Part shown: piece after piece, positions 2,863-49,656 of the stretch | Layout of the letters: each line of letters starts with the position of its first letter | Numbering within the stretch: the stretch's first letter is position 1 | Virus record (IMG/VR): IMGVR_UViG_3300037067_002170 | Span: 1 to 64,000 of that record | Strand: one strand, 5' to 3' | Source of the DNA: an uncultured virus (IMG/VR IMGVR_UViG_3300037067_002170) | Taxonomy: Duplodnaviria; Heunggongvirae; Uroviricota; Caudoviricetes | DNA: 64,000 nucleotides | Notes under the pieces: generated by a model | The model's input: the letters and a program-made list of their open reading frames with translations, nothing else | What the model was told of the DNA's origin: nothing | Database searches by the model: none | Made by a program: the position numbers and the translations under genes

Positions 2863-3645
2863 ATGGCATACGAAGATGGTAGGCAAGAATATTACGATGG
2901 CACGTGGAATAGCGCAGGTTATGATACTACCGGTGGCAAGGGAATCTCGCTTCCAAATGCTAGAGGAGAGTATTCAAATGCCTATGGATATTCTACCTGG
3001 GCCGATAAAGAGTCTAGTGACAAATTTTGGGCACAGAACCGAGAGGACCAACTTCGCAGTGAGGATTTTAACCGTCAACTCACCCTAGCTAACAACCAGA
3101 ATGCTTGGAGTGGATCTGGTGGAGGAACCAGTAGTTCTGGTTCTGGAGGAGGGGGAAACTCAAGCGGTTGGGGAAATGGTAGCGGTTTCAACAGTTCCGA
3201 CTCCACAAAACTGCTAAACATGCTAAGAGATTCTGGATATGGTTTGGCTAGTTATACCCCAATAGCTGCACCAACATTTACTGCCCCAGAATACAACAAG
3301 TCTGGATACAAACCATATGCTAACGAGATGGCAGCTGGACCCAATAGGGAACTATCCAGAATCATCCAAAAGGTAGTGCTGTCTAGTTATGGCAAGCCAG
3401 CTCCACTCGCTAGGATGAACACGAGCGCTGCACTTGAGAAGGGCGCTGAGGGATTCGCTAATATTGGAGCCAAGGCTACCGAGTATGGCCAGCGTCAGTA
3501 TGAGACAGAATACAACAGAGCCTTCAATGCTGCTATGGCCAACTTCAACGCACAGAACCAGAACATCAATATACAGAATCAAGCCGGTTACAATAAACAA
3601 CAGACGATGGCTAGCACCATCATGAATTCATATATGATGGGATAA
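2863..3645 (+). CDS. Putative internal virion (DNA ejection) protein, Gly/Ser/Asn/Gln-rich
   Basis: GGAGG RBS; low-complexity composition; first of three increasingly large genes typical of podoviral ejection modules. Confidence 0.6.
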   Translation: MAYEDGRQEYYDGTWNSAGYDTTGGKGISLPNARGEYSNAYGYSTWADKESSDKFWAQNREDQLRSEDFNRQLTLANNQNAWSGSGGGTSSSGSGGGGNSSGWGNGSGFNSSDSTKLLNMLRDSGYGLASYTPIAAPTFTAPEYNKSGYKPYANEMAAGPNRELSRIIQKVVLSSYGKPAPLARMNTSAALEKGAEGFANIGAKATEYGQRQYETEYNRAFNAAMANFNAQNQNINIQNQAGYNKQQTMASTIMNSYMMG

Positions 3646-11200: not shown

Positions 11201-14002
11201 CTAGTTCTTGATTGGGCAAAGGGTTTGGTGAAATCTAACCCAGATAATCTCCCGATGTCCGGCAAAGAGGTAGGGCGCTGGGAGCACAATCTATCCAACC
11301 CCCTCTGGCTTGGTACCCGCTTTATCGAGTGGACCAAGGCATTGCGTATTGGTGAGAAGCGATCTGCTGATTTCCAGACAGATAAGTACTATATGTACAA
11401 ACGGACTGATAGTTTCCAGAGGTTGGTAGACAAGAGCGTGGCGAAGTTAGATCCACTATTTGTATACGGATCAGCTATATCTCATAGCTATCTGACCAGA
11501 GAGGAATTGTCTAATCCTGCTACCATTGAGAAGATCTATAAACAAACTGGTAGCAAGCTTACAAACTACAACCTTACCAATAAAGAGATAGATGGATACC
11601 TGGAAGTAGTTGCTGAGTCCAAGAGGATTTGGGCAGACAAACTGACCACTGCAAAGATGGCCCTAGTTAAGCCGTTCCTTCCTGCGCTGAGTACCGAACA
11701 GGGTGCGGAGTTGATGAGGCTGCACAAGCTGTTGATCTCTGGAAAAGAACCAGCCAACATCAATGAGCAACTCAATGATAAGCAATGGAGAGATTACTAC
11801 GAACAAGATGGTAAGAAGCGATACGCCAACAAGCTGAAGTCTGCTTATGGAAAGATCAAGGGCCGCTTCAACGAGGTACAGGCCAAATATGCAGACAAGC
11901 AATTCTTGGATGGCTACGCACCCTTGCGTCATGGATCTGGGCCGTTCTATGTAGCGGTTAAGCGTTCGTGGACTGATCCCCAGGGCAAGAGTCATAGCGA
12001 GTGGGTGTGGTCACACCATGCTCAGAGCGAGCAGCACGCAGCAGAGATGACTGGAGAACTTAACAAGCTACTCAAGCAGACGGATGCTACAGATGGCACA
12101 TTCACCATCCATAGTGGTAGATCCCAAAAGCCAGAGGACTCCGTGTTCTTCATGGTTGGTGATATGAATACAGTCAGAGTTATCGACCTTGCTCTTGCAA
12201 ATATTAAGGCCAACGAGGATGCGTCCATCACGATGGAGCAGGCCACCGAGTTAATGGACAACCTTACCGATGCTATCGTTGATATTCGTAGGGCTCGTGG
12301 TGCTGGTGCCAGCGACATTTCCCGCCATGTCCTCAAGTGGGACGAGATGAAGACTGTTGGTGGCTACCAGGATACTGGATTCAGGGATATTTGGAACAGC
12401 TATTTCAATGGATACTATGGAATGAAGACAAAGTTCGGGGCATCTATTGAGTATATGGAACTACTCAAAGATGTGAAGCGAAATACTCCTCAGCTGTTTA
12501 ATGACCTAGTCAAGTATGCACAGGATAACCTGCGTAATAAGGATCAATACGATCGGAGCATAGGCCTTGCCAAGAATGCAATCTTTTACTGGTATCTTGG
12601 AGGCAAACTCTCTACTGCCGTACTCCAGATGACCCAGAACTTTGCAGTTGCCATCCCACGCATGGCAATGGAAATGAGCGCCATGAAGACCAAGGATGGG
12701 ATGTTTGCAGCAGAGGGATACTTCTTCAAGGCAATGAAGGATATTGCTGTCATGAAAAAGAACTCACCCAACGTCTCTGCTCCTGAACGGGCCATGCTTG
12801 AATACTTCGAGAGACGTGGAGAGCTGATGGCTCGCTTCATGCAGACCATCAAGATTGAGGTTGCATCTGGTGGGAACAAGATGGGCATGAAGGCTCTTGA
12901 GGTTCTTGGATGGCCGATGACTTACTCGGAGATCTTTAACCGTAAGTCTACTGCTCTGGCGTACTACAGATTCCTGAAGAAACAGGGTGGGCGTACTGAG
13001 GAGCAGATCTATGATAAGGTTGAAGACTTCATCAACAAGACACACTGGTTGTATGGCCCAGCTAATGCTCCTGCTGTTGCCAGAGGAACCGAGGCAATCA
13101 ACCGTATAGCTCAACTAGCATATACATTTAGACCATTTTCTCACAACTACGTACTTGCTTTGATCTACAACATCAAGAACGAGCAAGGCAATGCTGGGTT
13201 AGTATATGCAGCCAGATCGTTCGCATGGTTAACCCTACTTGGTGGCCTCCCTGCCCTTCCCTGGCTCGCTGACTTCATCGAGTACGTGACTAAGATGACC
13301 GGCGTTCCTATTAGAATGGAAGCACGAAAAATGGTTAAGGAGGCGATGGGCGATCAGGCTGAGAAGTTCTGGAGTGCTGGCGCGCTTGGAATGCTCGGTG
13401 GCATGGATATGTCTGCCGCAATTAGACCGGTGGGGTTACCGTCCTTCCCTTGGAGCGATGACTTCGTTGAATCTACAATGGGCGTATCTGGAGGATTGAT
13501 TAAGAAGGCTGCGAATGCAGCGAAGGCAGGGGCTGTTGGTGACTGGGTAAAGATGACAGAATCTCTGGCACCTACAGCAATGGAGAACATGATTAAGGCG
13601 TATAGACTAAACACCAGGGGAGTTACTACCTCCCAGGAGAAGCAAGTGTTTGGTCCAGACTTTAAGCAGATCAAGCTCGAAGGACTAGATTACTTCAAGC
13701 AGGGTTTTGGCTTCAAGCCGTATGGGTATTCCCAGGACCAAATGGATCTGTGGGAATCTAAAGTAGTGCAGGAACATTGGAATAAGGGGAAACAGAAACT
13801 AGAAAAGGAACGCAGGCTTGCTATAAACGACAAAGACTACACCAAACTTAGTGAAGTTGCTCGCAAATATACAAACTTTAACTTGTCAATACCCAAAGAG
13901 CTCACTGGTATCGTGACTCCAATTAGATGGGGTGTGATGGATAAGCCCGACAAGAAGATGGGCAGAATGTGGGGTGCCTTCGGACCTGGAGCACCTGAAT
14001 AA
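5261..14002 (+). CDS. Giant polyvalent/internal virion protein (2913 aa) with zincin-like HExxH and PLxRFG-like domain
   Basis: AGGAG RBS; HEILH near 10607; YAPLRHGSGPFYVAV near 11914; Lys/Ala/Glu-rich linker; C-terminal helical hydrophobic region. Confidence 0.75.
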   Translation: MAFIPDGQPTSSDGFVPVGNETLGTQNDFGLSVGSAVPTQPIAAPSSPGFIMPKISDIPSGLYEGITRGIPEQIGKALQFSGVAPETGKQLADWAEAGKNTDPKSFVREGAEMIGPSVGVASGLYYGGKALSAVPHPAAKIIGVGMQALGGYAAPAVMGLSQAQQTRETAQRAGVPEGYAPVVNGIIETAGEFFGTKYLGKAFGLMPIPEGAKETFKSFLKVMLTKVVPVEILTEMGQAFGQSYVEKQQGIRPDANPLMEALDVIGPTLVMTTLMGAAGATHKAYRGDFAKKDDVLAPNANLGLDAQEDGAVQVPEATIVQQKAVDPYTMTPETQKTWQDIIAGEATNTPSAATKSVAVDQEVAPPGTIVRAGEHDFVIDSHAPEGATGRRMFNSMEGGLPADASDAAKALYNRAQSELEFLKRQGSEVNPDSVVEMLATDPKAPPVSSEEVASVIAALNNPAKAVTKYGEPETYGHDKLTMKTERMVPLAQKNLTIEELQASKPKTFIDIVNFVAAKKAEGMNVKSVVDMLKDEDAMASFLPKVAVKERPSLKFPNAKESSLKQLKPKTMDEIEEAIDAGAKYEDVTGKDGERHIDYFPKELGYHFKDKDYKSDAEREIDTKEKINILKEKLKSFYKRRQFKMDEERSKQFGLVSQQTPEEFTAKNWKLYQEKDDKGKIKFVGIARMAPKFQGTTAKWIGPKVEESLKVVAAASKERRAALLKDVLATLKTFVSMGKIVKETVAVRPGEINLVDDLQNYIDTHRDTLSAEEIASYEAQIGGKKEATEKELESLFGPAIDGETSTFDIEGSTPAGEGFDMSLAAPNVNDFGVRKSMAVGQVIQDIESYLAGKGKLSNERFQAIISSMIRFQGGREIIDNFLKGNKTATEVIQQAKVKKIVEAGKKQDAKDKVQMEKAAAKDEAKKGKPKEKAATAPKIEFTKEQWREYVEKVRELYGKMFGKDFSTKKVAQIKDAVVGKIPNGKKNVVTEEQFKAINTRIREDMAGVSPTVVAKEAPVVAEKKEVAPKKSKEERTAAMLAGKEKFAEMRMKAKALKITVPKGTKMPQLAEMIAKAESGATEKGKPKNKGKAKVAKTTPEERKAVAEAQVTVKGKPIKGEVSEEETQNNFDAVFGVSGEAKPALAKKEPTPSSPAKPIVDLGASSKAEAKKPMVKEVAKTIEAKEYKSLPEGKALRSVELKSPEAAQKMVDNFVTMQDGVNKLNYEIANIGGKYYVISDAKPMKVVKVEPVVPISKEREAKNREAQIAKQKSAIRTTLREAIATLDKARDIGDPPTKAELDEMTEVVYAKFKQKGESPTLTNLIAYAAQKIQTKYGLSTSKQANAAMETMVKQSISQEIADVFAAESGRGGATSTSVKQLSREEEIAKLAEEQALDASDESLRVTEIPDIDNLTGREIYEFMRKDIESRIPLVKDPVTRDQMKNMLKIDLSRTGTRWKDAKSHIITMMDRFGKTARQTMATEYKLKVMDYVNQMSMVAVRLRQNPAIAKLIAGMVKDKKSKNYIDDFVWTISSPFYYSSKDIDAWFKKVKDPTRKRTDNSIISKENLVWIGKHWALRKDIHKGNKNPVYYYLAELTPELRNELGITDEAVDAALKSDKAVSRPKMGDKVISITTEAGNFELIIKPGKVFVAFDKETLAKDNIKTTLINAGMETAYRGDTLGESRLISANDILNRRIPFSITVESLQKELPTATHITEKSPGVFHVGWKGFSIEIRNGEVQYYARDNGEPVKINGRWKIKEGGRPIIEISKLAKDLKDFNVTIRHEILHMVFDIYLTKSEQNRLYDMYRTNPGQSLKDIQELIAEDYGTWMPGLKTAEEKATLFTKLMNGARDLLWKMQGVFTGRQNFSTKDELFAAIRSGRIFNRPLQLNISLTRVPKGQKIAAFGGGELPTTIKGILSDPSRDSKREWAGPVKRIPLMKTLESSGIIDYSELETNESLRRATGLAATNQDSITTDRAWYDLVLDWAKGLVKSNPDNLPMSGKEVGRWEHNLSNPLWLGTRFIEWTKALRIGEKRSADFQTDKYYMYKRTDSFQRLVDKSVAKLDPLFVYGSAISHSYLTREELSNPATIEKIYKQTGSKLTNYNLTNKEIDGYLEVVAESKRIWADKLTTAKMALVKPFLPALSTEQGAELMRLHKLLISGKEPANINEQLNDKQWRDYYEQDGKKRYANKLKSAYGKIKGRFNEVQAKYADKQFLDGYAPLRHGSGPFYVAVKRSWTDPQGKSHSEWVWSHHAQSEQHAAEMTGELNKLLKQTDATDGTFTIHSGRSQKPEDSVFFMVGDMNTVRVIDLALANIKANEDASITMEQATELMDNLTDAIVDIRRARGAGASDISRHVLKWDEMKTVGGYQDTGFRDIWNSYFNGYYGMKTKFGASIEYMELLKDVKRNTPQLFNDLVKYAQDNLRNKDQYDRSIGLAKNAIFYWYLGGKLSTAVLQMTQNFAVAIPRMAMEMSAMKTKDGMFAAEGYFFKAMKDIAVMKKNSPNVSAPERAMLEYFERRGELMARFMQTIKIEVASGGNKMGMKALEVLGWPMTYSEIFNRKSTALAYYRFLKKQGGRTEEQIYDKVEDFINKTHWLYGPANAPAVARGTEAINRIAQLAYTFRPFSHNYVLALIYNIKNEQGNAGLVYAARSFAWLTLLGGLPALPWLADFIEYVTKMTGVPIRMEARKMVKEAMGDQAEKFWSAGALGMLGGMDMSAAIRPVGLPSFPWSDDFVESTMGVSGGLIKKAANAAKAGAVGDWVKMTESLAPTAMENMIKAYRLNTRGVTTSQEKQVFGPDFKQIKLEGLDYFKQGFGFKPYGYSQDQMDLWESKVVQEHWNKGKQKLEKERRLAINDKDYTKLSEVARKYTNFNLSIPKELTGIVTPIRWGVMDKPDKKMGRMWGAFGPGAPE

Positions 14003-14012
14003 AAACTAGGAA

Positions 14013-14032
14013 GGGGCGGGTAATTCCGCCCC
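14013..14032. terminator. Intrinsic terminator hairpin between convergent late (+) and early/middle (-) transcription
   Basis: GGGGCGG-gtaatt-CCGCCCC hairpin with A-rich left and T-rich right flanks at the strand-switch point. Confidence 0.7.
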
Positions 14033-14128
14033 AACCTATTTACTTCCTCATCCTACCACACACATAGCCAATCCATAGAATCAAAAGCAAAACCGTTGCT
14101 ATTTCCAACACAGCGCCTATCATAGCGA

Positions 14129-14407
14129 TCACGCTGTTCCGGCGGTATCACCGTGTTTGAAGATCTGGCTCATAACCAAATCGTCTATGTCGGTGATTGC
14201 CTGATCTAGATCATCTTTCGATACCACTTGGTAAGCTAACGCATTCAACGCAGCCATCATAACTGTCGAGTCCATATCTGGGTACATATCAAGCAGGTGC
14301 ACTATGTGCTTCATCACCTGAGTGCTGTACTCATCGTCCTCAACCATCCACTCGTATTCTCGTTTGGCTTCAATGACGCTAGCGTCTCCACCGGTAACTC
14401 CACTCAA
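14129..14407 (-). CDS. Hypothetical protein
   Basis: 92-aa ORF, GGAGG RBS, overlaps the upstream stop. Confidence 0.6.
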   Translation of the reverse strand: MSGVTGGDASVIEAKREYEWMVEDDEYSTQVMKHIVHLLDMYPDMDSTVMMAALNALAYQVVSKDDLDQAITDIDDLVMSQIFKHGDTAGTA

Positions 14408-14655
14408 GCAACCTCCTGTTCGATATCGCTAAGAACCTTGCCTTCTGCCTGAAGGATGATGTCAATGAACTCAAAGAGCCTGAAGATGTTATACTTCTTA
14501 CCATGATACACTACATCCTGAGGATGCGAGGCCTGACCACCATCTATGAAGTGGAGACGCATCTGGTTACCCCCCATTTTTTCTATCCTCTTGACCGTAT
14601 CAAGGTTATACCAATGATCCTGATTGCTAATCTTAATCCAATTGTCTAATGCCAT
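14404..14655 (-). CDS. Hypothetical protein
   Basis: 83-aa ORF with AAGGAG RBS, tightly packed. Confidence 0.6.
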   Translation of the reverse strand: MALDNWIKISNQDHWYNLDTVKRIEKMGGNQMRLHFIDGGQASHPQDVVYHGKKYNIFRLFEFIDIILQAEGKVLSDIEQEVA

Positions 14656-15175
14656 TTACTCTCCTTCCCGCATCCATCTCTTATGCGCTTTAAATATCTG
14701 TTTAGCATCCACTGGATAGAAATCCCACTGATCCACCCCCACATTCACCATGTCTGGCTTGAATTTCCATACATCGTGGGAGTGGCCTACGAAAGCAAAG
14801 TCTATCCCTGTAAGCCGCATTACTTCTTTAGCGTCCTCCTCTCTGTGTGCTAGAACGATCGTTCTACCGAATGTTTCAATCACGCAGTATCTCAGGGGAA
14901 CATTCAACCCGTTGTTCTTGTCGTGGTTGCCCCTGATGAATACATGATGACCGTTGAGTTGAGCTGCCAGCTCGTGAACATTGGGTCCTTGGGACGATAC
15001 CTTGAAGTCTCCGAGATGGTATACCGTATGCCCAGGTTTGACCCGCTCGTTATGCCGCTTGATTAGAACGGCGTTCATCTCCTCAACGCACCTGAACGGT
15101 CTAAAAATGAACTTGGTTAAGATGTTCTCGTGGTTAAAATCCTCAATGCTCGTCAGAAGTAAACCAATAAATCAT
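14656..15175 (-). CDS. Calcineurin-like metallophosphoesterase, interrupted after codon 10 by a 7-nt insertion (TGAGGAT, 15145-15139); recoded gene or pseudogene
   Basis: ATG 15175 with GAGGTG RBS gives MIYWFTSDEH*. Removing 7 nt restores SDEHFNHENIL...RPF...EMN..LI, then HLGDF, RGNHD and VGHSH (170 aa). Confidence 0.8.
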
Positions 15176-15762
15176 TGTTCACCTCTAACGAGCACTCCGT
15201 CCCTTTCCGTTAAAATATTCATATAATATTCTCCTTTCTCAAATCTTATTATCTTAAGCTTCAACAACTCTTTCATCATTTTGAATATTTTTCTGACACA
15301 CCTCCCGTGTTCTGAGTGCCCGGAATATAGATGCAAATTGTTTATATTGTTATTATCTTTTACGAAATCTATATGGTGTACTATTTCTCCCTTTAAAACA
15401 GGACGCTGTATGTGGTCTGACATAATCATAATATGCTCACATACATCATTATTGTGATTTCTATTGGGATGCTTTCTGTCCCTTATCAACACATATCCTT
15501 GTTTTGTCATATACTTTGATCCGTGTTTTTTGCAACCAACACACCTTTTGGACCGAAAATCTATACTGTCTCCACAGATCTCACATTTGTTTGGAATAAA
15601 ATATTTTCCAGTTTTATAGTTGCTGTTTTTGCTCCCACTGTTTAGTGCTGATTGCAGCTTTTTATAACATTCGCTAGAGCACGTTTGTCTTGTAAGTGAA
15701 GGATAATACCATCCAATATCTTTGTTGCATACCACACAAACACATAGAATTTTTGATGCCAT
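15172..15762 (-). CDS. Free-standing HNH homing endonuclease with N-terminal zinc fingers
   Basis: GYVLI...EH..IM...EIVHHIDFVKDNNNINNL HNH signature; several CxxC; visibly more AT-rich than its neighbours. Confidence 0.85.
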   Translation of the reverse strand: MASKILCVCVVCNKDIGWYYPSLTRQTCSSECYKKLQSALNSGSKNSNYKTGKYFIPNKCEICGDSIDFRSKRCVGCKKHGSKYMTKQGYVLIRDRKHPNRNHNNDVCEHIMIMSDHIQRPVLKGEIVHHIDFVKDNNNINNLHLYSGHSEHGRCVRKIFKMMKELLKLKIIRFEKGEYYMNILTERDGVLVRGEQ

Positions 15763-15767
15763 TTGAG

Positions 15768-15800
15768 TACACCCCTATATTTTATTTTTATAAGGGTGCA
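15768..15800 (-). promoter_or_regulatory. Hairpin sequestering the HNH ribosome-binding site
   Basis: Minus strand TGCACCCTTATA-aaaataaaa-TATAGGGGTGTA forms 12 bp (2 GU) covering AGGGGTG just before ATG 15762. Confidence 0.65.
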
Positions 15801-15853
15801 CTATTTATGGTAACATGTCAAGTGGTTAAAGTGTTTATCAGTATGTTACCGAT

Positions 15854-16072
15854 TTACAGTACCTCCATAACTGCCGATACAAAGTCTTCATCCTGGATCA
15901 ATGGAGCCTCCATCACTGAGCAATAGTCATCTTGCACCTTGACCAGCTCCCTCTCGTCTGTTTCGTCGTAGTCAACCACAACCACCATAACCTCTGGATC
16001 TGGATTGTTTGTGTAGATTGCCCTTACCATTCCATCCTCGATTACCACCACAATTTTGATCTCCTCTGGCAT
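15854..16072 (-). CDS. Small acidic hypothetical protein
   Basis: GGAGGTG RBS; 72 aa. Confidence 0.65.
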   Translation of the reverse strand: MPEEIKIVVVIEDGMVRAIYTNNPDPEVMVVVVDYDETDERELVKVQDDYCSVMEAPLIQDEDFVSAVMEVL

Positions 16073-16165
16073 TGCATCACCTCCCCATTATCCAATAGAC
16101 TATCCTTCGTTTAATATATGTCCACTCAACCCATAGGTATAAACAGAATCTATTCCATCGCTTTC

Positions 16166-17017
16166 TCATATGGCCGATACCCTCCTCTTGAACATGTCCG
16201 CAGCTCGCTTGGATATTTGCTTCCGAGCCTCCTTGTGGAACTCGATCTCTCCTTCAGCCTCGATTTCTATATCAGCTAGCAACGCTTTAATCACATCACC
16301 AGTTGACTCGATATTCACATCATTGGGAAACTTCTGAAGCACGTGGGTCAATCTCATCTCTGTAGCCCACTCATCGGCTATTGCATTAGCACAAGTAAGT
16401 ATATCGAGTCCCTCTTGTGTGAGGTTACGAGTAGTTCGTGTCTCCATGAACGCATCTGCCTTATGTTTAGCGATTATCCTGGCCCCATTATTTTTGCGCA
16501 TCTCAACTAGTGGCCTAAGCACAATACCCTCGCGAGGACGCTCTTCGATAATACCATTGCGAACTGCCTGAGCTGACGGAAGATCTCTCCATTGGTTGAG
16601 CACATCAATATCGGTGTCGATGATCTGGTAATCAACAAACTCTAACCCAAGCTGTTCAGTTATGGCATGAGCGACCGGAACATTAACGAACATATGCTCG
16701 CCAAACTTAACATCAAACACGATGAACTTCAGCTTGTCACCGTAGGTCTTGCGCATCCCTTGCTGCTTGCCACCATATGCCTCGCCGTAGATGGTAACAT
16801 CGTCATACCCACCAAGCATGAACTTGTATATCAGCAGCTCCTTATCGAACAACTCAACGAACCTCTCGTAGCTCTCTCCACCAGAGAAGAAGTGGACATC
16901 ACCGTTGTTCCAAGACAGGTGCGCTGATGTACCGTGAATCTTCTCCATTGCATAGCACTGCTTGAACAACATGATGTCTCGATCCTTGTACAGATTTGGA
17001 ATCTTCATGTAACCCAT
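16166..17017 (-). CDS. ATP-dependent RNA ligase (Rnl2-like nucleotidyltransferase)
   Basis: Motif I EKIHGTS; IYGE; FIVFDV; EGIVLRP; AKHK. Confidence 0.8.
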   Translation of the reverse strand: MGYMKIPNLYKDRDIMLFKQCYAMEKIHGTSAHLSWNNGDVHFFSGGESYERFVELFDKELLIYKFMLGGYDDVTIYGEAYGGKQQGMRKTYGDKLKFIVFDVKFGEHMFVNVPVAHAITEQLGLEFVDYQIIDTDIDVLNQWRDLPSAQAVRNGIIEERPREGIVLRPLVEMRKNNGARIIAKHKADAFMETRTTRNLTQEGLDILTCANAIADEWATEMRLTHVLQKFPNDVNIESTGDVIKALLADIEIEAEGEIEFHKEARKQISKRAADMFKRRVSAI

Positions 17018-17021
17018 TAAC

Positions 17022-17399
17022 TTACCTCCCTAACCCACCATTCTGTTTAGCTTCTCTGGCATACTCCCATGCCTCTATCTGCCTCTCTGCCTTAAGGTCG
17101 TTTGCATATTCTTGAGATGCGTCCATAATTTTCTCGTATAGTGAATCATCTCCATATAGCATGGAACACAGTTTGCGATACCCCTTTGATTTATTATCTA
17201 CCAACTTGGTACCGGTAAATGTATCAATATAGATATCGCCAATTTCAAAGCCCTCTACATAATTATCCCTCTTGTCATAGCTCCACTGGCTGCCTCGCTG
17301 ATACCACCCTATCCCATCATTGCCATACTCAATATTCTCAACCTCAACGGTAAGGTTAAGTTCTAGTCCGTATAGATATACACTATGAGTTATTATCAT
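17022..17399 (-). CDS. Hypothetical protein
   Basis: GGAGG RBS before ATG 17399. Confidence 0.6.
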   Translation of the reverse strand: MIITHSVYLYGLELNLTVEVENIEYGNDGIGWYQRGSQWSYDKRDNYVEGFEIGDIYIDTFTGTKLVDNKSKGYRKLCSMLYGDDSLYEKIMDASQEYANDLKAERQIEAWEYAREAKQNGGLGR

Positions 17400-17448
17400 A
17401 GCATCCTCCGTAAATATGCGTGTTCGGTATGCGCATCCCACCAATAAC

Positions 17449-18597
17449 CTAGTTAGCTCTACTTATCGCTAGTGCATCATGCCCACAGTCCATGCAGTAG
17501 CCCTGCTTATTGACATCCCCATAGCATAGCTCACACCACTCACCACCTGAGTCATAGGCTAGTTCGCTACGCTCCCGTTCCGTCCATGTACCCTCAGATA
17601 GTCCGTGTATCCCGACGTGTTTCTTCTCCCCCTTGTCGTTGGTTCCGTACCAGTCATCCTTCCAGGGGTCTTTGTACCACGATCCGTATCCACCCCACTT
17701 AGAATCCTTGGCCTTATCGGCTGGTATCTTGTACTTCTTGGCGATTGGATGTTTAACCATCAAGATACATCTTGCTATTGACATCTCTAGTTCATCGAGG
17801 TGTAGCCGTTCATGAACTGTATGCTGGTTATGGTAGCCAACACTAACGTTCACATGTGGTGTATACATCTCCTCGCTAATGAACATGCAATCGCTAAAAC
17901 TGCCTACCTTCTCCGACCATCCGAACAACTTGGCGTGATCCTTCACGGCCTGATGGCTCCAGGTGTACTGTACAAACTCATTAGCTCCTTGTCTGTCCAT
18001 GGCTATTAGCATCCGATAGCGGAGGACTTCTTCCTTCAGCTTAGTATCTCCATCTAAATCCTCGATGAAGTCTAGCATTCCCCAGCCACCCTGTTCTTCT
18101 CCGTTGGTGAACAGTAGCCCCGGAGTTTTGCCTCCCTCATTCTTGACCGCATGATACACCCGTATCATGGCAAACACACCAGCCCGGTCGTCTGCTCCAA
18201 GTATACCGAACTTGTTGGTTACTACGTTCCCTTTACGCTCTATGAACACTCCCTGCTTGGCTGGGATCATGGTATCCACGTGAGACTGCAATAACGTGGT
18301 GTGGCCAGGAACGTATAGGTATGATGTCTCCCCTAGTTTGTCAAGACCAACGATTGTCCTTTCGCTCTCGAATATCGTTCTGAGAACGTCAAAGCACTGG
18401 GTGTCATTAGCCTTGAGCAACAACTCCAGCAGTTTGTATTCGCTTTTCCCCATAGCCATCTCTGTGTACGCAACTACAGGAGCTTCTTTCTTATCCTGCC
18501 GTTCTTTCCTATCCTCGCTAACAAGCTTTGCTCGTCTACCCACAGGCTGCAACTTTCTCCCCGTGATCTTGTCCGTTAATGCTGGCGTTCTCCTCAT
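17449..18597 (-). CDS. M28/M20-like zinc metallopeptidase
   Basis: SHVDT, LGADDRAGV, GEEQGG, AMDRQG and HTVHE motifs; C-terminal CxxC pair. Start codon uncertain. Confidence 0.8.
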   Translation of the reverse strand: MRRTPALTDKITGRKLQPVGRRAKLVSEDRKERQDKKEAPVVAYTEMAMGKSEYKLLELLLKANDTQCFDVLRTIFESERTIVGLDKLGETSYLYVPGHTTLLQSHVDTMIPAKQGVFIERKGNVVTNKFGILGADDRAGVFAMIRVYHAVKNEGGKTPGLLFTNGEEQGGWGMLDFIEDLDGDTKLKEEVLRYRMLIAMDRQGANEFVQYTWSHQAVKDHAKLFGWSEKVGSFSDCMFISEEMYTPHVNVSVGYHNQHTVHERLHLDELEMSIARCILMVKHPIAKKYKIPADKAKDSKWGGYGSWYKDPWKDDWYGTNDKGEKKHVGIHGLSEGTWTERERSELAYDSGGEWCELCYGDVNKQGYCMDCGHDALAISRAN

Positions 18598-30884: not shown

Positions 30885-31205
30885 TCATGCGCCGGTATCC
30901 TCCTCCTTGTCAGAAATACTAACCAACTTTTCTCCCTCATCAACCTCGTCTAGCACATTGCCAATATCTATAAGGTAGGCCCTAAAGCTCTCATTTGTGA
31001 ATGCAATAGGGGGCTTATCATTGGCAGCGGGAGAGGGAATCGAACCCTCACGTCCAGGAGTCAAAGTCCTGTCTGCCCCCAGGGCGTCCCGCAGTGCATT
31101 ATGTAGATCCATCTCCATCTTATCAACAAACTCACAGAAGTGGGCATATGCGCTTCCGCCACAAGGCCTCTCCCAGGTGGTCTGGGTAGAATCACGATCG
31201 GTCAT
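30885..31205 (-). CDS. Hypothetical protein whose ORF spans the tRNA-Gln
   Basis: GGAGG 7 nt before ATG 31205; stays open through the tRNA on the same strand. Confidence 0.5.
   Translation of the reverse strand: MTDRDSTQTTWERPCGGSAYAHFCEFVDKMEMDLHNALRDALGADRTLTPGREGSIPSPAANDKPPIAFTNESFRAYLIDIGNVLDEVDEGEKLVSISDKEEDTGA
31022..31093 (-). tRNA. tRNA-Gln(UUG) with shortened D-arm and encoded CCA
   Basis: Acceptor TGCGGGA/TCCCGCT (1:72 U-U), G73, CCA; anticodon arm CAGGA-CT TTG AC-TCCTG; T-arm GAGGG-TTCGATT-CCCTC; D-arm only GCCC-TGG-GGGC. Confidence 0.8.
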
Positions 31206-34582: not shown

Positions 34583-34660
34583 TGGTCGAGATAAGAGGAT
34601 TCGAACCTCCGACTCCCCGGTCCCAAGCCGGGTACTCTGACCATGCTGAGCTACATCCCG
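34583..34660 (-). tRNA. tRNA-Pro(UGG) with encoded CCA
   Basis: CGGGATG acceptor; TAGCTCAGCATGGTCAGAGT D-arm; CCCGG-CT TGG GA-CCGGG; GGAGGTTCGAATCCTCT T-arm; ACCA end. Confidence 0.95.
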
Positions 34661-43138: not shown

Positions 43139-43147
43139 GGATCATTG

Positions 43148-46100
43148 ATGGCAGAACAGTTCATGCGGATATACGATTATGATGATGCACCCACTATCCG
43201 TGCGTTCAACGAGGATAAGCGGTTCTTTAAGTGTATCTACGGCCCGTTTGGGTGCTTATCAGCAGACACGGAATACCTAACTCCATATGGATGGAAATAC
43301 ATTAATGAATACAATGGATCAGATCCAATTGCTGAATTTGATTTAGATACATCTAGGCTTGTATTCTCGAAACCACAAGCGTATATCAAGCTTCCATGTG
43401 AGTCTTTCTTGCATCTCAAAAATCAATACGGAATAGACCAGTTGCTTAGTGATGAGCATACTGTTTTGTTTAACACTAGGTTTAAGCCGGAAGAGTGGAG
43501 GACCATTTCTGCCCTTGATCTTGCAACATCCCACAATAAGCTGAAGGACGGATGGTCTGGCAGAATCCCCACTACGTTTAAGGCCCCCCATGCAGGCGGT
43601 GTGGATCTTGATGATTTCGAGTTGCGCCTCATGGTTGCTATTTCTGCCGATGGGCACTTTCCCAAAAACCAAGACCCTCCTCCATGTATGGTGTGTGTTA
43701 GAAAGCAAAGGAAGAAGGATAGGATGAGATGGCTGCTTTCTGAATGCAATATTGATTGGAAAGAACGCAACTATGCTGCTCGGCCAACAGAAACAACCTT
43801 TGTGTTTAAGGCCCCAGAACAGAATAAGCTTTTGTGGAAATATATTGATGCTACCGAAGAACAGCTGGCAATCATAGCCGACGAGTTCACTTATTGGGAT
43901 GGGCACGAGGATTGTTACGGTGGAAGGGTCTATGCTTCAATCATAAAAGAGAATGCTGATTTTATTCAATACGCTCTCGCAACCGTTGGCATAAGATCTA
44001 CGATATCAATCATAGAACATGAAAACGAAAAATGGCATGACGGATATAGACTATATGCTGGAACTGGAGCAACCTTTTTGTCTATGCGACAGGCTCCTAA
44101 GATAGAGCGAGTTCCGTCTGTAGATGGATTTAAGTATTGCTTCACTACTAATACTGGGTTTTTTGTAGCTCGTCGCAATGGGAGAATATTTATCACTGGC
44201 AATAGCGGCAAGTCTAGTGGTTGTATAGCCGAAATAATAGACATAGGTGTTAATCAGGCTCCAGATCAAACTAAAACACGCAGAACTAAGTGGGCAATAG
44301 TAAGAAATTGCTACGATGACGAAACCGAGGTTCTCACCGAAAAGAACGGATGGGTGTTGTTTAAGGATTTGCAACCAGAGGATAAAGTTGCAATGCTGGA
44401 GAACGAAAAGTTAGTATTTATTAGTCCAACATATTACTATACGGCAGATTACGATGGGGAAATGGTTGGCTTTCAAAACGAAGGCGTAGATTTCTGCGTT
44501 ACCCCCGACCACAAGATGTATATTTCAATGCGCAATGCTCGCAAAAAGATTTGGGAGGATTATCGCTTTAGAACCGCTGATGATATTTATGGAAACAAGA
44601 ACATTGCGGTAAAGAGAAACGCCAACCATTGGGATGGTGTAATCCCTCCGTATTCAATTGACTTTTGTGAATGGTTAGGGTTTTGGACAGCAGAAGGATC
44701 GGCGTCTTTGTACCTGCATGGTGGTTATGCTCGTAGAAGATGCGTAATAACCAACAAAAATGACGTAGAATATACAAGAAAGTTATTTAAAAATGCCAAT
44801 ATCCCCTTTGGAGAAAATATTCGCCAAGATGGGGGGATTAATTTTGTAGTAAGAATTAACGAAGAAACCAAACCTCTTATAGATATGCTTATCCCGTTGG
44901 CCGGTTCTGGGAACAAACATGTTCTTCAGTGGTTGAAAGATTCTCCTCCTGAATACATAAAGGCTTTTATCAAAGGGTATCTTGCTGGAGACGGTAGCCA
45001 TAGTTCCGATGGTACAATCGGGGCAACAACGGCTTCTGCCCAACTTGCTGACGATATACAAGAGTTGGCTCTTCGAGCCGGAATGGTTGTCAATCTACAC
45101 ACTAGCAAAAAAATAGACCACATGGTTATTGGGGGCGTTGATACAAAACAAAATTACGATACGAATAGAATAACATTTGTCAAGGAATGCAAGTACGAAC
45201 CAATGCTCACGGTAGGAGGGTATGCTAAAAAATACACAGGGTGGTATAAAAAACAATACAACGGAAAGGTGTACTGCATAGAGGTTCCAACGCATGTTAT
45301 TTATGTCAGGAGAAATAAAAAAGCTTTTTGGTGTTCACAGACATATAAAGTCCTGCTAGATACTACTATGGCCACTTTCTTTCATTGGCTCCCTCCTGAA
45401 TATTTCGGAACATTCAACGTAACAAACTTCTCCTATAAGATAGACAAGATCGTTCTAGACGATGGGACCAAGGTGGAGATAGAGGTTATCTTCCGAGCGC
45501 TGGACAAACCAGAGCAGGTTAGGAACCTTCTCTCCCTCGAGTTAACTGGTGCGTGGTTTAACGAGATCCGCGAGATGCCCAAGGCGATCATTGATGCTAT
45601 GGAGGGGCGTGTTGATAGGTTCCCTGCCCAAGATGATGGTGGCCCCACGTGGACCGGTATCATTGCTGACTCTAATCCCCCCGACCAAGAATCGTGGCTC
45701 TATAAGTTCTTTGAGGAAAAGGTGCCCAAGGACCCAGAGTTACAATCTAAATATGTCCTCTATCGCCAACCATCAGGCAGGTCTCCCCAAGCAGAAAATA
45801 GGAAGCACCTTTCAGATACCTACTACACCAATATGGCAATCGGGAAAGACCCGGAATACATCAAGGTATATATTGATGGAGACTATGGATATATCAGAGA
45901 CGGCAAGCCAGTATTTGGGAATTATTCCGACTCTTTGCATTGCGCTGATGATATCATTATCCCTGTTCGTGGAGTCCCCGTTATAGTTGGGGTCGACTTC
46001 GGATTGACTCCCGCTGCCGTGTTTACCCAGTATCTCCCCAAGGGAAACTTTAACATCTTTCACGAGTTCACTTCTGAAGACATGGGCATTAGAAGGTTTT

Positions 46101-46585
46101 TCACAGATATAATCAAACCATATATATTTGCTAACCTACGGGGATATGATGTAGTTGTCACCGGCGATCCCGCTGGTGTAAGGAGGCAAGATACCGACGA
46201 ACGTTCTTGCTTCGACGAGTTACGTCTTATGGGCTATCCGGCTACACCTGCCCACTCTAACGCCTTCCTTGCCAGATACAATGCTATCGACCAGTTCCTG
46301 GTAAAACTAATAGAGGGAAAGCCAGCTTTCCAGCTATCTCCGAATTGCACAATGCTGCGAAGGGGGTTTATTGGGGAGTACAAGCTCAAGAAATATCGCG
46401 GTCTTAACGACAGATTTTCAGAGATCCCAGCGAAGGATGAATGGTCGCACCCGATGGATGCTGCTCAATATGCAGCAATGATAGTAGATCGTGCGGCTAA
46501 TATGGAGAAAACACGGACCCCATCACAGCTTCGTTACGCAAGCAAGTACGCTGCTGCTAGACCACAGATGTCAGCCTGGACATAG
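43148..46585 (+). CDS. terL: Terminase large subunit with two inteins (mature about 484 aa)
   Basis: Spliced Walker A GPFG|SGKS; AIVRN|TY; LELTGAWFNE; DSNPP; GVDFGLTPA; GDPAG; SHPMDAAQY. Confidence 0.95.
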   Translation: MAEQFMRIYDYDDAPTIRAFNEDKRFFKCIYGPFGCLSADTEYLTPYGWKYINEYNGSDPIAEFDLDTSRLVFSKPQAYIKLPCESFLHLKNQYGIDQLLSDEHTVLFNTRFKPEEWRTISALDLATSHNKLKDGWSGRIPTTFKAPHAGGVDLDDFELRLMVAISADGHFPKNQDPPPCMVCVRKQRKKDRMRWLLSECNIDWKERNYAARPTETTFVFKAPEQNKLLWKYIDATEEQLAIIADEFTYWDGHEDCYGGRVYASIIKENADFIQYALATVGIRSTISIIEHENEKWHDGYRLYAGTGATFLSMRQAPKIERVPSVDGFKYCFTTNTGFFVARRNGRIFITGNSGKSSGCIAEIIDIGVNQAPDQTKTRRTKWAIVRNCYDDETEVLTEKNGWVLFKDLQPEDKVAMLENEKLVFISPTYYYTADYDGEMVGFQNEGVDFCVTPDHKMYISMRNARKKIWEDYRFRTADDIYGNKNIAVKRNANHWDGVIPPYSIDFCEWLGFWTAEGSASLYLHGGYARRRCVITNKNDVEYTRKLFKNANIPFGENIRQDGGINFVVRINEETKPLIDMLIPLAGSGNKHVLQWLKDSPPEYIKAFIKGYLAGDGSHSSDGTIGATTASAQLADDIQELALRAGMVVNLHTSKKIDHMVIGGVDTKQNYDTNRITFVKECKYEPMLTVGGYAKKYTGWYKKQYNGKVYCIEVPTHVIYVRRNKKAFWCSQTYKVLLDTTMATFFHWLPPEYFGTFNVTNFSYKIDKIVLDDGTKVEIEVIFRALDKPEQVRNLLSLELTGAWFNEIREMPKAIIDAMEGRVDRFPAQDDGGPTWTGIIADSNPPDQESWLYKFFEEKVPKDPELQSKYVLYRQPSGRSPQAENRKHLSDTYYTNMAIGKDPEYIKVYIDGDYGYIRDGKPVFGNYSDSLHCADDIIIPVRGVPVIVGVDFGLTPAAVFTQYLPKGNFNIFHEFTSEDMGIRRFFTDIIKPYIFANLRGYDVVVTGDPAGVRRQDTDERSCFDELRLMGYPATPAHSNAFLARYNAIDQFLVKLIEGKPAFQLSPNCTMLRRGFIGEYKLKKYRGLNDRFSEIPAKDEWSHPMDAAQYAAMIVDRAANMEKTRTPSQLRYASKYAAARPQMSAWT
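43253..44203 (+). mobile_element. Intein 1 in TerL Walker A (317 aa, LAGLIDADG-type endonuclease)
   Basis: Starts CLSADTEYLT; ends FFVARRNGRIFITGN followed by Ser; VAISADG and FTYWDG motifs. Confidence 0.95.
44309..45340 (+). mobile_element. Intein 2 in TerL (344 aa, LAGLIDADG endonuclease, C-terminal Gln)
   Basis: Starts CYDDETEVLT; block B VTPDHKM; LGFWTAEG and GYLAGDG; ends VYCIEV...FWCSQ followed by Thr. Confidence 0.95.
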
Positions 46586-46593
46586 GAGACGAA

Positions 46594-49500
46594 ATGCAAG
46601 TTATCCCAAACTCTGAAATAGGCAGGATGGAAGGAGAGCAGGCTACACTGGATGGTATCCTCGACGATACCGCCGCTGTGGGGCTTCAGAATTCCATGAT
46701 CTCGGACTACATCTGGAACTGCTGGGAGAAGGCCAAGCGTTTCAAGGAGAACGGGGCAGAGGCTCGTATTCTCGCAAATATGCGACAGATAGACGGCCAG
46801 TATGATCCCGGTAAACTTGCCGACATCAAGAAGATCGGTGGTTCTGAAGTCTTCATGATGATTACTGATGCCAAACAAAAGAACGCTAGTTACTGGGTGC
46901 AGGACATTCTTTTCCAGCCAGGACAGAGATCTTGGGGAATAGAGCCCTCCCCGGTACCAGAGCTTCCCCCTGAAGTTAAAGAGCAGATCGTAACCGCTAT
47001 ATTCCAATCACTAATGGAGGGACTATCTCAAGCAGCAGAACTCACTGGGCAGATGCCCAACGAGCAGTATATCCAGGGCGAGATAGCCAGCGCTATGCCG
47101 GAGATAGAGAAGGCGGTTAAGGAAGAGATCCTCCGTACTGCCAGAGAGAGGGCCAAAGACACAGAGCAATCGGTAGATGACAAGCTCACCGAGGGTGGGT
47201 ACTACTCAGCTCTCCGCAAGATGATCCCCAATTGCATTGCCCACACAGGGTTCCTAAAGGGTCCAATTAACAAGAAGCGCAGGATCATGAAGGTGGTTAC
47301 CGATGGAGAGGGTAGACTTACCAAGCAAGTTACCGAGGAGATTTACCCCACATGGGAATCCCGTCACCCCCTCTATATTTACCCTGCACCGGGTTCTGTG
47401 GACGTAAACGATGGATACCTCATTGACAGGGTTAAACTCACGCCACTTGCCCTCCAGGACCTCCTAGGGGTGGATGGTTATGACTCCGAAGAGATTATGG
47501 CAGTACTCGATGAAGCAGAGAGCGGAAAACTGTTCGAGTGGCTCCCTGTAGACCAGGACATCGCAGACATCAACGAAGAGAATTCTATGATCTCCTACGA
47601 CTCTGACAAGATAGATTGCTTGGAGTTTTGGGGAACAGTAAGAGGCTCCTACCTTGCTGATTGGGGGTTAGCCGTAGAGAACGAATCTTTCTTCTACAAC
47701 ATCAAGGCATATCTCATTGGTAGTCACGTTATTGGTATACAGTTTAACGATGACCCTATGGGGCGTAAACCGTTCTATAAGGATTCATTTGAGAACAAAG
47801 ATGGATCGTTCTGGGGTAAGGGGCTCCCTGAAGTAATTGCAGATTGCCAGGGTGTGTGTAATGCTGTCTCTAGAGCAATCGTGAACAACGCAGCTATGGC
47901 TAGCGGTCCACAGGTGGAACGCAACATAGATCGCATCCCTCCCCACGCTCGAGAAGACACAGCGCTCATCCCCTGGAAGGTGTGGGACACTACATCTGAT
48001 ATGATGAGCAATGGGAAAGCCATCGAGTTCTTCCAACCGCCAATGGTGGTAGAGAAGTTGCTCCAGGTATACAATGCTTATTCCAAGATTGCAGACGAGC
48101 ACTCGGGGGTTCCGGGATTTGCTCATGGTGATACACAGGTCGGGGGAGCTGGCAACGCTCTAGCAAACTACGAGGAGATCTTGACTCCTTGTGGGCCGGT
48201 TGCAATGGGTGATGTTTCTGTTGGGGATGAAGTTGTAAATACTTATGGTGGGGTCTCTAAAATAACCGGAGTTTATCCGCAGGGAGAATCCGATATCTTT
48301 AGAATGTATTTTAATAATGGCGAACACGTAGATTGCGATATGAACCACAGGTGGTCAGTTGAGGCATTCGATCATTATGATCGTAAAGTCAGAACAATGA
48401 CTACTGCCGAGTTACTGGAACGTGGACTTTTCCAGAAAACGAAAAAAACAGACAAGTACCCGGACGGTTACAGGCCAAAATGGGCATTGCCGTTGATAGA
48501 TGGGGTGGAGTTTGCTCCCAGAGATGTCAAAATTGACCCATATACTCTGGGTTGTTTAATTGGAGATGGCACGTATGGAAGTCGTAGTTGCAAACTAATA
48601 AGCATGGACCAGGAAATATTTGACCGGATACCATATCCATTGGGCAAGAAGCAATTTAGACCGGAAAATAAATCATGGGTGCAATCAATAGGAACCATTA
48701 CTGGTGATTTTAGAAGTTATGGTCTCAACTGTAAATCAATTCACAGGTTTATCCCAGAAGACTATCTGTACAATACAAGAGAAGTGCGTTTAGAATTGCT
48801 AAGAGGGTTGATGGACACGGACGGTACTGCGTATAAGACAGGTTCTGTGCGTTACTATACATCTTCAAAGAGGCTCGCTCGCGACTTTAAGGACCTCGTA
48901 AATTCTCTGGGTGCTAACGTTCAGCAAATAGAGAGAAGAGAGAATGGGTCGTTTGTTATTAAAGGCAAGAAGTATGTGAGTAAAACGTCTTATAGTGTTG
49001 TCTTTAATCTACCCGGAGAAAAAATATTTCACTTAGAAAGAAAACAGTCAAAGGTAATAACATCCGCAAAACCGCCACATACTTTTATAGTTGGAGTTAA
49101 ATACATCGGAAAATTCGAAGCCACCTGTATTTCGGTGGACTCTAGCAATGAACTGTTTGTTTGCAAAAACCTAATAGTTACGCATAACACAGCTTCGGGA
49201 TTGAACATGTTGATGTCTTCGGCAGCTCGTGGCATCCGTGGGTTAGTGTCCTCTCTTGACGAGAACGTCATCAAGCCAGCGGTCGAACGCCAGTACGTAT
49301 ATATAGTCGACACCGAACCAAACTATGGATTCATTTGTGACTACAATATTGTAACCTCTGGATCTGCCGCAGCTCTAGTGAAAGAGCAGATGGCAGCACG
49401 CCGGATCGAGTTCATGAACGCTACAGCCAACCCACTCGATGCTCAGATCCTTGGGATCGAAGGACGCAAGTACCTCCTGGAGGAAACAGCTAGATCTATC

Positions 49501-49656
49501 CAATTGGATCTGTCTCGCGTGTTTCCGCCAGCACAAACAGCACCCCCACAACCAGCTGGTCCTGGCGACCAGTCAGAGAAACCACAGGCATTAGATGCGG
49601 CAGGAAGCCCCGTAGTTGGGCAAGACTCGCGCGCTTTCAATCAACCAGCACAATAG
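46594..49656 (+). CDS. Portal protein with one intein (mature about 676 aa)
   Basis: Follows TerL; GSFWGKGLPE, NNAAMASGPQ and spliced GAGN|TASGL.MLM motifs of podoviral portals. Confidence 0.9.
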   Translation: MQVIPNSEIGRMEGEQATLDGILDDTAAVGLQNSMISDYIWNCWEKAKRFKENGAEARILANMRQIDGQYDPGKLADIKKIGGSEVFMMITDAKQKNASYWVQDILFQPGQRSWGIEPSPVPELPPEVKEQIVTAIFQSLMEGLSQAAELTGQMPNEQYIQGEIASAMPEIEKAVKEEILRTARERAKDTEQSVDDKLTEGGYYSALRKMIPNCIAHTGFLKGPINKKRRIMKVVTDGEGRLTKQVTEEIYPTWESRHPLYIYPAPGSVDVNDGYLIDRVKLTPLALQDLLGVDGYDSEEIMAVLDEAESGKLFEWLPVDQDIADINEENSMISYDSDKIDCLEFWGTVRGSYLADWGLAVENESFFYNIKAYLIGSHVIGIQFNDDPMGRKPFYKDSFENKDGSFWGKGLPEVIADCQGVCNAVSRAIVNNAAMASGPQVERNIDRIPPHAREDTALIPWKVWDTTSDMMSNGKAIEFFQPPMVVEKLLQVYNAYSKIADEHSGVPGFAHGDTQVGGAGNALANYEEILTPCGPVAMGDVSVGDEVVNTYGGVSKITGVYPQGESDIFRMYFNNGEHVDCDMNHRWSVEAFDHYDRKVRTMTTAELLERGLFQKTKKTDKYPDGYRPKWALPLIDGVEFAPRDVKIDPYTLGCLIGDGTYGSRSCKLISMDQEIFDRIPYPLGKKQFRPENKSWVQSIGTITGDFRSYGLNCKSIHRFIPEDYLYNTREVRLELLRGLMDTDGTAYKTGSVRYYTSSKRLARDFKDLVNSLGANVQQIERRENGSFVIKGKKYVSKTSYSVVFNLPGEKIFHLERKQSKVITSAKPPHTFIVGVKYIGKFEATCISVDSSNELFVCKNLIVTHNTASGLNMLMSSAARGIRGLVSSLDENVIKPAVERQYVYIVDTEPNYGFICDYNIVTSGSAAALVKEQMAARRIEFMNATANPLDAQILGIEGRKYLLEETARSIQLDLSRVFPPAQTAPPQPAGPGDQSEKPQALDAAGSPVVGQDSRAFNQPAQ
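48157..49188 (+). mobile_element. Ala-start intein in portal (344 aa; class 3 WCT signature; LAGLIDADG endonuclease)
   Basis: ALANYEEILTP.G; block B NHRW; block F ATCISVD; block G IVTHN followed by Thr; LGCLIGDG and LLRGLMDTDG. Confidence 0.92.

Follow-up and report, generated by a model that had tools for sequence, protein, structure and literature searches.

Stop-led short gaps in a phage metallophosphoesterase gene: a candidate ribosome-bypass device of homing endonuclease cassettes

Introduction

Can a gene whose first metal-binding motif is followed directly by a stop codon, only ten codons from the start, still give rise to its enzyme? The question is raised by a calcineurin-like metallophosphoesterase gene in the stretch of DNA analysed here (the window), which comprises 64 kb of a 65,382-base tailed-phage sequence and contains capsid, terminase, primase and endolysin genes. 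A free-standing HNH endonuclease gene lies directly upstream, and the original prediction was that the interruption might be repaired at translation. Very few systems are known to use programmed bypassing, namely T4 gene 60 with its kin, the byps of yeast mitochondria and a candidate in a Streptomyces phage.

Results

The phosphoesterase gene starts with the ATG at 15175, has the ribosome-binding site GAGGTG at 15185-15180, and overlaps the end of the HNH open reading frame (15762-15172) as ATGA (15172-15175), all as read previously. On the minus strand the sequence is ATG (15175) ATT TAT TGG TTT ACT TCT GAC GAG CAT, then TGAGGAT (15145-15139), then TTT AAC CAC. The first ten codons (15146-15175) encode M-I-Y-W-F-T-S-D-E-H and end in the proposed take-off codon CAU (15148-15146). 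The 7-nt coding gap consists of a UGA stop (15145-15143), one base, and the proposed landing codon GAU (15141-15139). From 15138 the frame is open for 160 codons to a stop at 14656. This resumed frame (14656-15138, minus strand; 160 aa, phrog_547) starts with FNHENI, and its GD, GNHD, GHSH and NVGVD motifs are undamaged. The original prediction that removing the 7 nt gives SDEHFNH with the other motifs whole is thus borne out.

The DxH, GD, GNH and GHxH motifs and the fold of a calcineurin-like metallophosphoesterase are all present, with DxH in a separate upstream frame. The closest solved structure is Aquifex Aq1665 (1XM7); the predicted model of an intact relative, P0004, matches it with a TM score of 0.78. 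The first strand, which carries the D-x-H metal ligands (a strand at residues 2-6 in the P0004 model), lies within the ten codons before the gap. Judging from this model and from general knowledge of the fold, a start at the internal ATG at 15078 would presumably yield a protein without the first strand and two ligands. D7, H9 and H12 are invariant in 74 aligned proteins (alignment A5), and the D-x-H-x-x-H spacing is kept in 184 of 189 unbroken alleles. The window product is stored as a 140-aa fragment, and intact 169-aa relatives share its 90% cluster.

The 7-nt stop-containing insert, reported earlier at 15145-15139, is real. A Logan contig of run X1, a groundwater metagenome, has no differences from the window over 13500-18500. 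X1 has a mean depth of about 6.5 and is possibly the window's source sample, so that its agreement rules out assembler-specific error only. A near-identical phage is present in run X2, from another study; the listed X2 pieces leave 15003-15336 uncovered and are uninformative on the gap. No RNA run containing the stretch is listed. A chance origin of the insert is excluded by recurrence: 16 further distinct loci have differing inserts at these codons (see below).

The HNH gene (15172-15762, minus strand) encodes a protein of 196 aa with a zinc-finger-like N-terminus and has a GC content of 35%, compared to 46-48% in the flanks. The protein matches Pfam HNH_3 with an E value of 5e-5, slightly below the curated cut-off, and PHROG HNH families with E values down to 9e-14, and is 44-46% identical to the HNH proteins upstream of two other interrupted alleles, L036 and L052. 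In a relative from run X4, position 15112 is joined to 15854, and the HNH gene is therefore absent there. At the left edge of the insertion lies a decayed stub of the original 5' end of the phosphoesterase gene, TDKHFNH without a start codon (15822-15842, minus strand). It matches the insert-free site at 16 of 21 bases, a joint-best score in the 65-kb genome, tied with one unrelated site. Clearer stubs were found by motif search upstream of the endonuclease in L036 (NYWFTADTHFGHAN), L052 (KTWFTSDTHF), L076 (MGKLFFTSDLHLN) and L077 (MKYFFTSDL), and upstream in L192; a stub in L190 was recognised by eye. By motif search, 6/17 broken alleles have such a dead remnant of the original start upstream, as against 0/180 intact ones; the latter include 11 with an endonuclease neighbour, all of them lacking a stub. 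Given that stubs are present only upstream of broken alleles, we conclude that the HNH gene was inserted into the motif and brought a replacement start with it. The stubs stop no more than about four codons from D-x-H; this puts the point of insertion in these codons, and presumably the target as well. The HNH gene does adjoin the phosphoesterase gene, as had been noted, but it is more than a neighbour: it is inserted into the gene, whose first ten codons are element-borne. A homing element is characterised by an endonuclease gene that sits at a conserved site and is missing from the corresponding alleles of relatives; this is represented here by the stub, the replacement start, the HNH-less X4 relative and the intact close relatives. 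A search of viral contigs with an HNH alignment returned only two already-known loci, and the reverse test is therefore small.

A 14-bp RNA hairpin (15766-15802, minus strand; -19 kcal/mol) is predicted to bury the HNH ribosome-binding site GGGGTG, and the region 15750-15870 has a folding z of -4.4, with 0/200 shuffles as stable. The homing endonucleases of T4 likewise have their own ribosome-binding sites buried in a hairpin. With 11 sites found and 8.2 expected, a promoter scan gave no site above chance level before the HNH gene. Just upstream of the HNH gene, the inverted repeat GGTAACAT/ATGTTACC (15809-15850, minus strand) flanks the stub and a TTGACA hexamer. It is possibly an operator resembling the target site, for which autorepression by I-TevI provides a precedent; more speculatively, the stub itself (15822-15842) may double as an operator.

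Homology searches of viral contigs yielded 132 distinct viral loci. In eleven of these the D-x-H-F-x-H codons are interrupted, and no locus has a break anywhere else; one search used a full-length query, which favours intact alleles, and without it the count is 11/79. Pattern scans added L025, L027, L190, L192 and L195, while seven of ten metagenome pattern matches were unrelated sequence and were dropped. Including the window there are 17 distinct broken alleles: 13 with gaps of 4-8 nt, three with one extra base and one with a 31-nt duplication. The take-off codons and gaps of the 13 are CAT/TGAGGAT (window), CAT/TAGCTAC (L005), CAC/TGAT (L025), CAT/TAGTTTGT (L027), CAT/TAGTTAT (L064), TTC/TGAATTT (L065), ACC/TGAAAACT (L076), CTT/TAACTT (L077), TGG/TAATGT (L081), CAT/TAGCTT (L085), CAC/TGACCAC (L190), CAC/TAACAA (L192) and CAT/TAGGTAC (L195). 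The gaps are 4, 6, 7 or 8 nt long, with 6 nt in L077, L081, L085 and L192 and 8 nt in L027 and L076. A stop codon opens the gap directly after the take-off codon in 13/13, a count to be read with the fact that L195 came from a stop-requiring pattern and that members of the homology set were recognised by their break. In three scans that allowed any insert of 0-30 or 1-30 nt, the gap was stop-led in 5/5 true-homologue alleles with a gap of at least 4 nt.

The last three bases of the gap match the take-off codon at two or three positions in 12 of the 13 (binomial 6e-7 at p 0.25). Exact landings are CTT-TAA-CTT (L077) and CAC-TGA-C-CAC (L190); the pairs TTC/TTT and ACC/ACT are synonymous. Landing codons of the form xAY recur in L005, L025, L064 and L195. 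The N-terminus of the protein P0074 reads as the +1 frame of the D-x-H-F-x-H motif, from which we infer a further gapped case with an xAY landing; it is not included in the counts. Some of the resemblance of the landing codons to the take-off codons could stem from tandem duplication.

The remaining broken alleles look different. L036, L051 and L052 have one extra base (about 2995-3005), reading CAC-UUU-CGG, and lack the hairpin described below; they may undergo a +1 slip at UUU-C, the next codon being a rare Arg codon, and such slipping would be a second way to tolerate a break. The 31-nt duplication insert of L057 (about 3000-3035) lies between CATGA repeats and contains an internal hairpin, the perfect palindrome TAGCTACTA-TT-TAGTAGCTA, the start of which resembles the L005 gap.

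The gap is absent in 77 distinct genome-contig loci. Four genome-contig loci were set aside: L133, L180 (frameshift elsewhere), L111 (cut by the contig end) and L182 (ambiguous). L133, from an alphaproteobacterial MAG, has an in-frame TGA (about 3004-3006) in the same motif, where its relatives have Trp; this is either a nonsense point change, recoding or another genetic code, and falls outside the broken set. Among cultured phages 1001 records match, at less than 60% identity among the 60 matches listed; the one opened, Phass-1, is intact. In a FastTree protein tree the broken alleles are dispersed between intact ones, the clade L051/L052/L057 being the exception; L025, L077, L085 and L195 are unlabelled in this tree or absent from it.

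What the stop-type alleles share is an RNA hairpin on the 5' side of the gap. In the window it is predicted to have 23-24 bp (15145-15196, minus strand): the HNH tail and the GAGGUG ribosome-binding site (15196-15173) pair with codons 3-10, and the stem closes at the take-off CAU. The window hairpin has a z of -4.35 (0/200 shuffles as stable), or -5.3 in the 75-nt test described next, and, with 23 pairs (5 of them G-U), is paired over a greater length than any other of the set. A strong hairpin ending at or near the take-off codon is predicted in 13/13 gapped alleles. When 75 nt ending at the His position were folded, a z below -2.5 was obtained for 13/13 stop-type, 0/4 other broken, 4/114 intact viral and 3/75 genome-contig alleles (Fisher 1e-14). 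The stems of the stop-type alleles contain 27 G-U pairs and one A-C mismatch, counted in minimum-energy structures, which favour G-U; this suggests that selection acts on the RNA and speaks against a decaying palindrome in the DNA. An alignment of five alleles, onto which the window structure was placed, has 94% of cells paired and 6/14 pairs changed on both sides, with 0/500 shuffles as high and 34-57% paired in controls slid along the sequence. In L064, L081 and L195 an in-frame start is located upstream of the stem, which therefore lies inside the translated region and cannot be an initiation block only. Neither an A-site nor a 3' stem-loop is predicted at the window locus (z -0.50 for 15120-15175 and -0.56 for 15060-15138).

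The HNH tail of the window also contains a possible coupling leader (15172-15235, minus strand), a 16-codon open reading frame with AGGAG at 15235-15231 and ATG at 15222, which crosses the 5' arm of the hairpin and stops on the phosphoesterase start codon. A homologous leader survives in the HNH-less L027, and a similar one is present in L005. We rejected a separate leader with its own ribosome-binding site as a general feature, since it occurs in only these 3/13 stop-type alleles, compared to 9/114 intact ones; in several other stop-type alleles, it is the upstream gene that runs across the 5' arm and has its stop at the start codon. The leader sequence MIIKRNNL is common to P0125 and L005 (about 2893-2965), broken alleles from different phosphoesterase subclades, and its sharing suggests that a single element remnant moved between them.

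An endonuclease neighbour is clear in 8/17 broken alleles and 11/121 intact ones (Fisher p 3e-4; a hand tally, in which both neighbours were scanned in some but not all of the 121 intact alleles). In the homology-found set only, the numbers are 4/11 and 11/121 (p 0.02). The neighbours of the window, L036 and L052 belong to one HNH family; those of L065 and L076 are NUMOD3-bearing members of phrog_23051, which we read as HNH-like from sequence; that of L192 carries NUMOD1; and in L025 and L195 the endonuclease gene is downstream. The co-occurrence of insert and HNH that the original prediction anticipated is therefore an enrichment, not a rule: besides the 11 intact alleles with a neighbour, 7/17 broken alleles have no recognisable endonuclease neighbour, and two others have weak remnants only. 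In L199 an intact phosphoesterase gene lies beside a short (102-aa) HNH gene of the window's family, without a stub; this is either a counter-example or a decayed case.

The reading that best accommodates these observations, and which we think probable on the sequence evidence, is a ribosome hop from CAU to GAU across the 7 nt, pushed by the hairpin and giving SDEHFNH. A mobile HNH cassette would have inserted into the D-x-H-F-x-H codons of the phage gene, its right end being the gap of 7 nt by which the presumed recognition site is split. By analogy with MobA, whose nicking is blocked by the bypass insert (Manning and Atkins, 10.1101/2022.08.31.505936), we infer that the gap shields its carrier from its own HNH. 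Ribosomes translating the HNH tail or the leader would melt the hairpin, with coupling to the AUG. Ten codons later the ribosome would stall, its A site occupied by UGA and its peptidyl-tRNA-His paired to CAU. The mRNA exiting behind it could then zip back onto the upstream arm and push the ribosome forward, much as the sliding on gene 60 is directed by mRNA that folds anew behind the ribosome (PMC11194080; Wills et al., 10.1101/2024.12.09.627546). Finally, tRNA-His would re-pair 7 nt further on at GAU (2/3 positions) and decoding would resume at UUU, restoring the wild-type sequence. For assumed ribosome footprints of 9-15 nt, an illustrative calculation gives 12 to 3 kcal/mol of stem pairing freed by a 7-nt advance. 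Three features sit less easily with a hop: the window landing codon is mismatched at its first position (G against anticodon G), as the landing is imperfect in 9/13 gapped alleles; the nascent peptide is only 10 aa long, which favours drop-off and counts against bypassing; and, as noted above, folding predicts neither an A-site nor a 3' stem-loop.

The mismatch is an argument for the leading alternative, namely that the bypass class is real and the window allele is decayed or low-yielding, its gene being nearly silent. The gap would then be kept only for blocking the HNH, as a protective scar or in a young pseudogene. The terminal branch of the window allele measures just 0.04 and intact relatives share its 90% cluster, leaving no time for decay to show; the broken alleles are polyphyletic, so each could be young, and the enzyme may be dispensable. 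Against this, GD, GNHD (GDHD in one) and (G/A)HxH motifs are kept in 17/17 broken alleles and none has a second lesion; the window hairpin has the longest pairing of all, and its type of landing recurs in the four alleles named above and presumably in P0074. A mere scar, moreover, needs neither a stop, nor a landing codon, nor an RNA stem. The original prediction had proposed dN/dS below 1 as a check, and the sister alleles L051 and L052, which have the same one-base break, indeed differ by a pS of 0.72 and a pN of 0.14; this covers the 1-nt class only, as no such pair exists among stop-type alleles, and the break possibly arose twice. We regard decay of the window allele as unlikely.

A +1 frameshift at CAU-UGA, producing SDEH-ED-FNH, was the second repair route originally offered beside the hop. 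The +1 frame is open in the window, the 4- and 7-nt gaps are in the majority (8/13), and L036, L051 and L052 look like a true +1 slip at CAC-UUU-CGG. That 1-nt class, however, lacks the hairpin, and a shift leaves the 6-nt (L077, L081, L085, L192) and 8-nt gaps (L027, L076), which have the same hairpin, unexplained. Re-pairing of tRNA-His on AUU would be poor. Given the invariant D7, H9 and H12 and the near-universal spacing between them, a two-residue insertion would also be without precedent here. It is on the gap lengths and the conserved spacing that we favour the hop; the +1 shift is distinctly unlikely.

Alternatively, the 7 nt might be cut from the mRNA and the ends rejoined, for instance by a nuclease and an RNA ligase, with the hairpin as a guide. 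The stem ends exactly at the gap, and an RNA ligase gene (16166-17017, minus strand) lies 400 nt upstream of the HNH gene. However, RNA ligase genes are also found beside the intact alleles L002, L101 and L203; the gaps share neither terminal bases nor length; excision would require no stop or landing codon; and the locus matches no Rfam family. We consider excision very unlikely. Assembly or sequencing error, raised as an alternative in the original prediction, is exceedingly improbable: the low read depth and the possibly common source of the sole covering contig are outweighed by the agreement of the separate X1 assembly, the co-adapted hairpin and stub, the 16 other broken loci, and the occurrence of the L005 allele in a second record (L032), with its truncated product on 11 contigs.

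Three further readings were rejected. A hop from GAG to GAG, a perfect match, would have a sense codon in the A site and remove the ligand His. If ribosomes read through the HNH stop into the frame downstream, the fusion would be without D-x-H. A remnant of a group I intron, with an insert ending in G, agrees with the window but not with L005. No group I intron core (RF00028) was detected at the gap locus, the sole match in the window lying at 58567-59312.

RNA ligase or polynucleotide kinase genes often flank the phosphoesterase gene (in the window, L002, L057, L101, L203, L082 and L257, the L057 neighbour being read by eye, without a family match), hinting at a role of the enzyme in RNA end-healing.

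Discussion

The proposed kinship with mobA and gene 60 has held up, through the recurrent stop-led gaps, the near-matched landings, the RNA-selected hairpin, the stubs and the enrichment of endonucleases. The hairpin before the gap, the stub and the hairpin over the HNH ribosome-binding site had no part in the original prediction. The window cassette works like the T4 system but is not a member of it, as several defining features differ. We compare the two using the parts of the cited sources that were accessible. In the T4 mobA/gene 39/gene 60 region, too, an endonuclease is inserted in a conserved gene, followed by a replacement N-terminal segment and then by a gap at the 3' end of the element; MobA can give way to other nucleases and is outlived by the gap, in line with the different endonuclease families at one site and the nuclease-free gaps seen here (10.1101/2022.08.31.505936; Bonocora 2011 as cited there). 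Gene 60 also has a stop directly after the take-off codon, like UGA 15145-15143 and all 13 gaps, and a 5' RNA stem; that of the window is predicted, covaries, and differs in geometry, ending at the take-off codon. The host gene is a phosphoesterase here and a topoisomerase II gene in T4. The gap has 4-8 nt, compared to 20-50 nt in gene 60 and its homologues, and take-off occurs at codon 10 rather than about 46, whereas the nascent-peptide signal of gene 60 is some 45 aa long. Gene 60 has stem-loops within the gap (take-off/A-site) and a 3' barrier stem-loop, of which none is predicted in the window. All gene 60 homologues covered by these sources have take-off and landing codons read by one tRNA; CAU and GAU in the window are not, and the same tRNA would serve in 4/13 gapped alleles (L065, L076, L077 and L190). 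The T4 system is one homologous cassette, whereas many independent gap sequences are found here. The mini Shine-Dalgarno sequence 5-7 nt before the gene 60 landing site has a possible counterpart in GAG (Glu9), 7 nt before GAU in the window and likewise placed in L005, but this codon is coding-constrained and absent in most relatives.

Closest in size is the 10-nt gap in the gene for the terminase of Streptomyces phage phiHau3, for which a 5' stem-loop has also been proposed and a peptide spanning the bypass junction was detected in E. coli when a UAA version was used; its natural trigger differs, being the sense codon UUA when hungry, for which a role in regulation has been proposed, and the word 'homing' is absent from the accessible text of the paper (PMC10732093). 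The synthetic stop hops of Weiss et al. (1987) have the same form as the 6-nt relatives here, and the 2016 review that describes them states, in its accessible text, that natural in-frame stop hopping was not known (PMC5009743). Our candidates are natural and have a dedicated hairpin, and the 7-nt gap of the window itself is out of frame. The byps of Magnusiomyces mitochondria are likewise recurrent inserts made harmless by bypassing, but they measure 27-55 nt, place an unused sense codon in the A site of mitochondrial ribosomes, and are described without an endonuclease cassette in the accessible part of the source (10.1101/2022.08.31.505936). No published report of such gaps in phosphoesterase genes was found in a search outside which lay most subscription papers and the bioRxiv supplements, including the metagenomic tables of Manning and Atkins.

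We incline slightly towards a general view: that phage homing endonucleases repeatedly evolve a minimal recoding device, consisting of a hairpin complementary to the first codons of the target gene, a stop and a 4-8-nt gap, and that bacterial ribosomes hop efficiently with a 10-residue peptide, even onto mismatched codons. If this is true, natural stop hops exist, and tiny gaps have repeatedly served homing endonucleases for self-immunity, as a third route to a nuclease-resistant yet functional allele that needs neither intron nor intein. The device would be present in 8-14% of the phage alleles of this phosphoesterase family (with the 1-nt class counted), hiding as annotated pseudogenes, and gene callers would truncate such genes, as in the 140-aa fragment of the window. 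The 13 natural alleles differ in gap length, take-off codon and landing match and have essentially one common signal, the 5' hairpin. They are thus a series well suited to asking whether mRNA zipping alone drives the ribosome and how little landing pairing suffices.

Other features of these sequences deserve mention. The window contains two tRNA genes on the minus strand, Gln(TTG) at 31022-31093 and Pro(TGG) at 34583-34660; neither is a His or suppressor tRNA gene. The group I intron at 58567-59339 (plus strand; RF00028, 70.6 bits) lies close to the 3' end of the major capsid gene, which it splits, and contains an endonuclease open reading frame (58642-59334). Beside the small terminase gene, two large adjacent open reading frames (43145-46582 and 46594-49653, plus strand) each contain a LAGLIDADG domain, the first also having a weak Hint match; they are probably the large terminase and portal genes with inteins. 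Lastly, the phosphoesterases of L011, L013, L049, L063, L077, L082, L094, L113, L118 and L121 have in-frame insertions of about 15-40 residues after an R-P-F motif, perhaps a second endonuclease target site in the gene; in L049 and L082 the insertions adjoin a different HNH.
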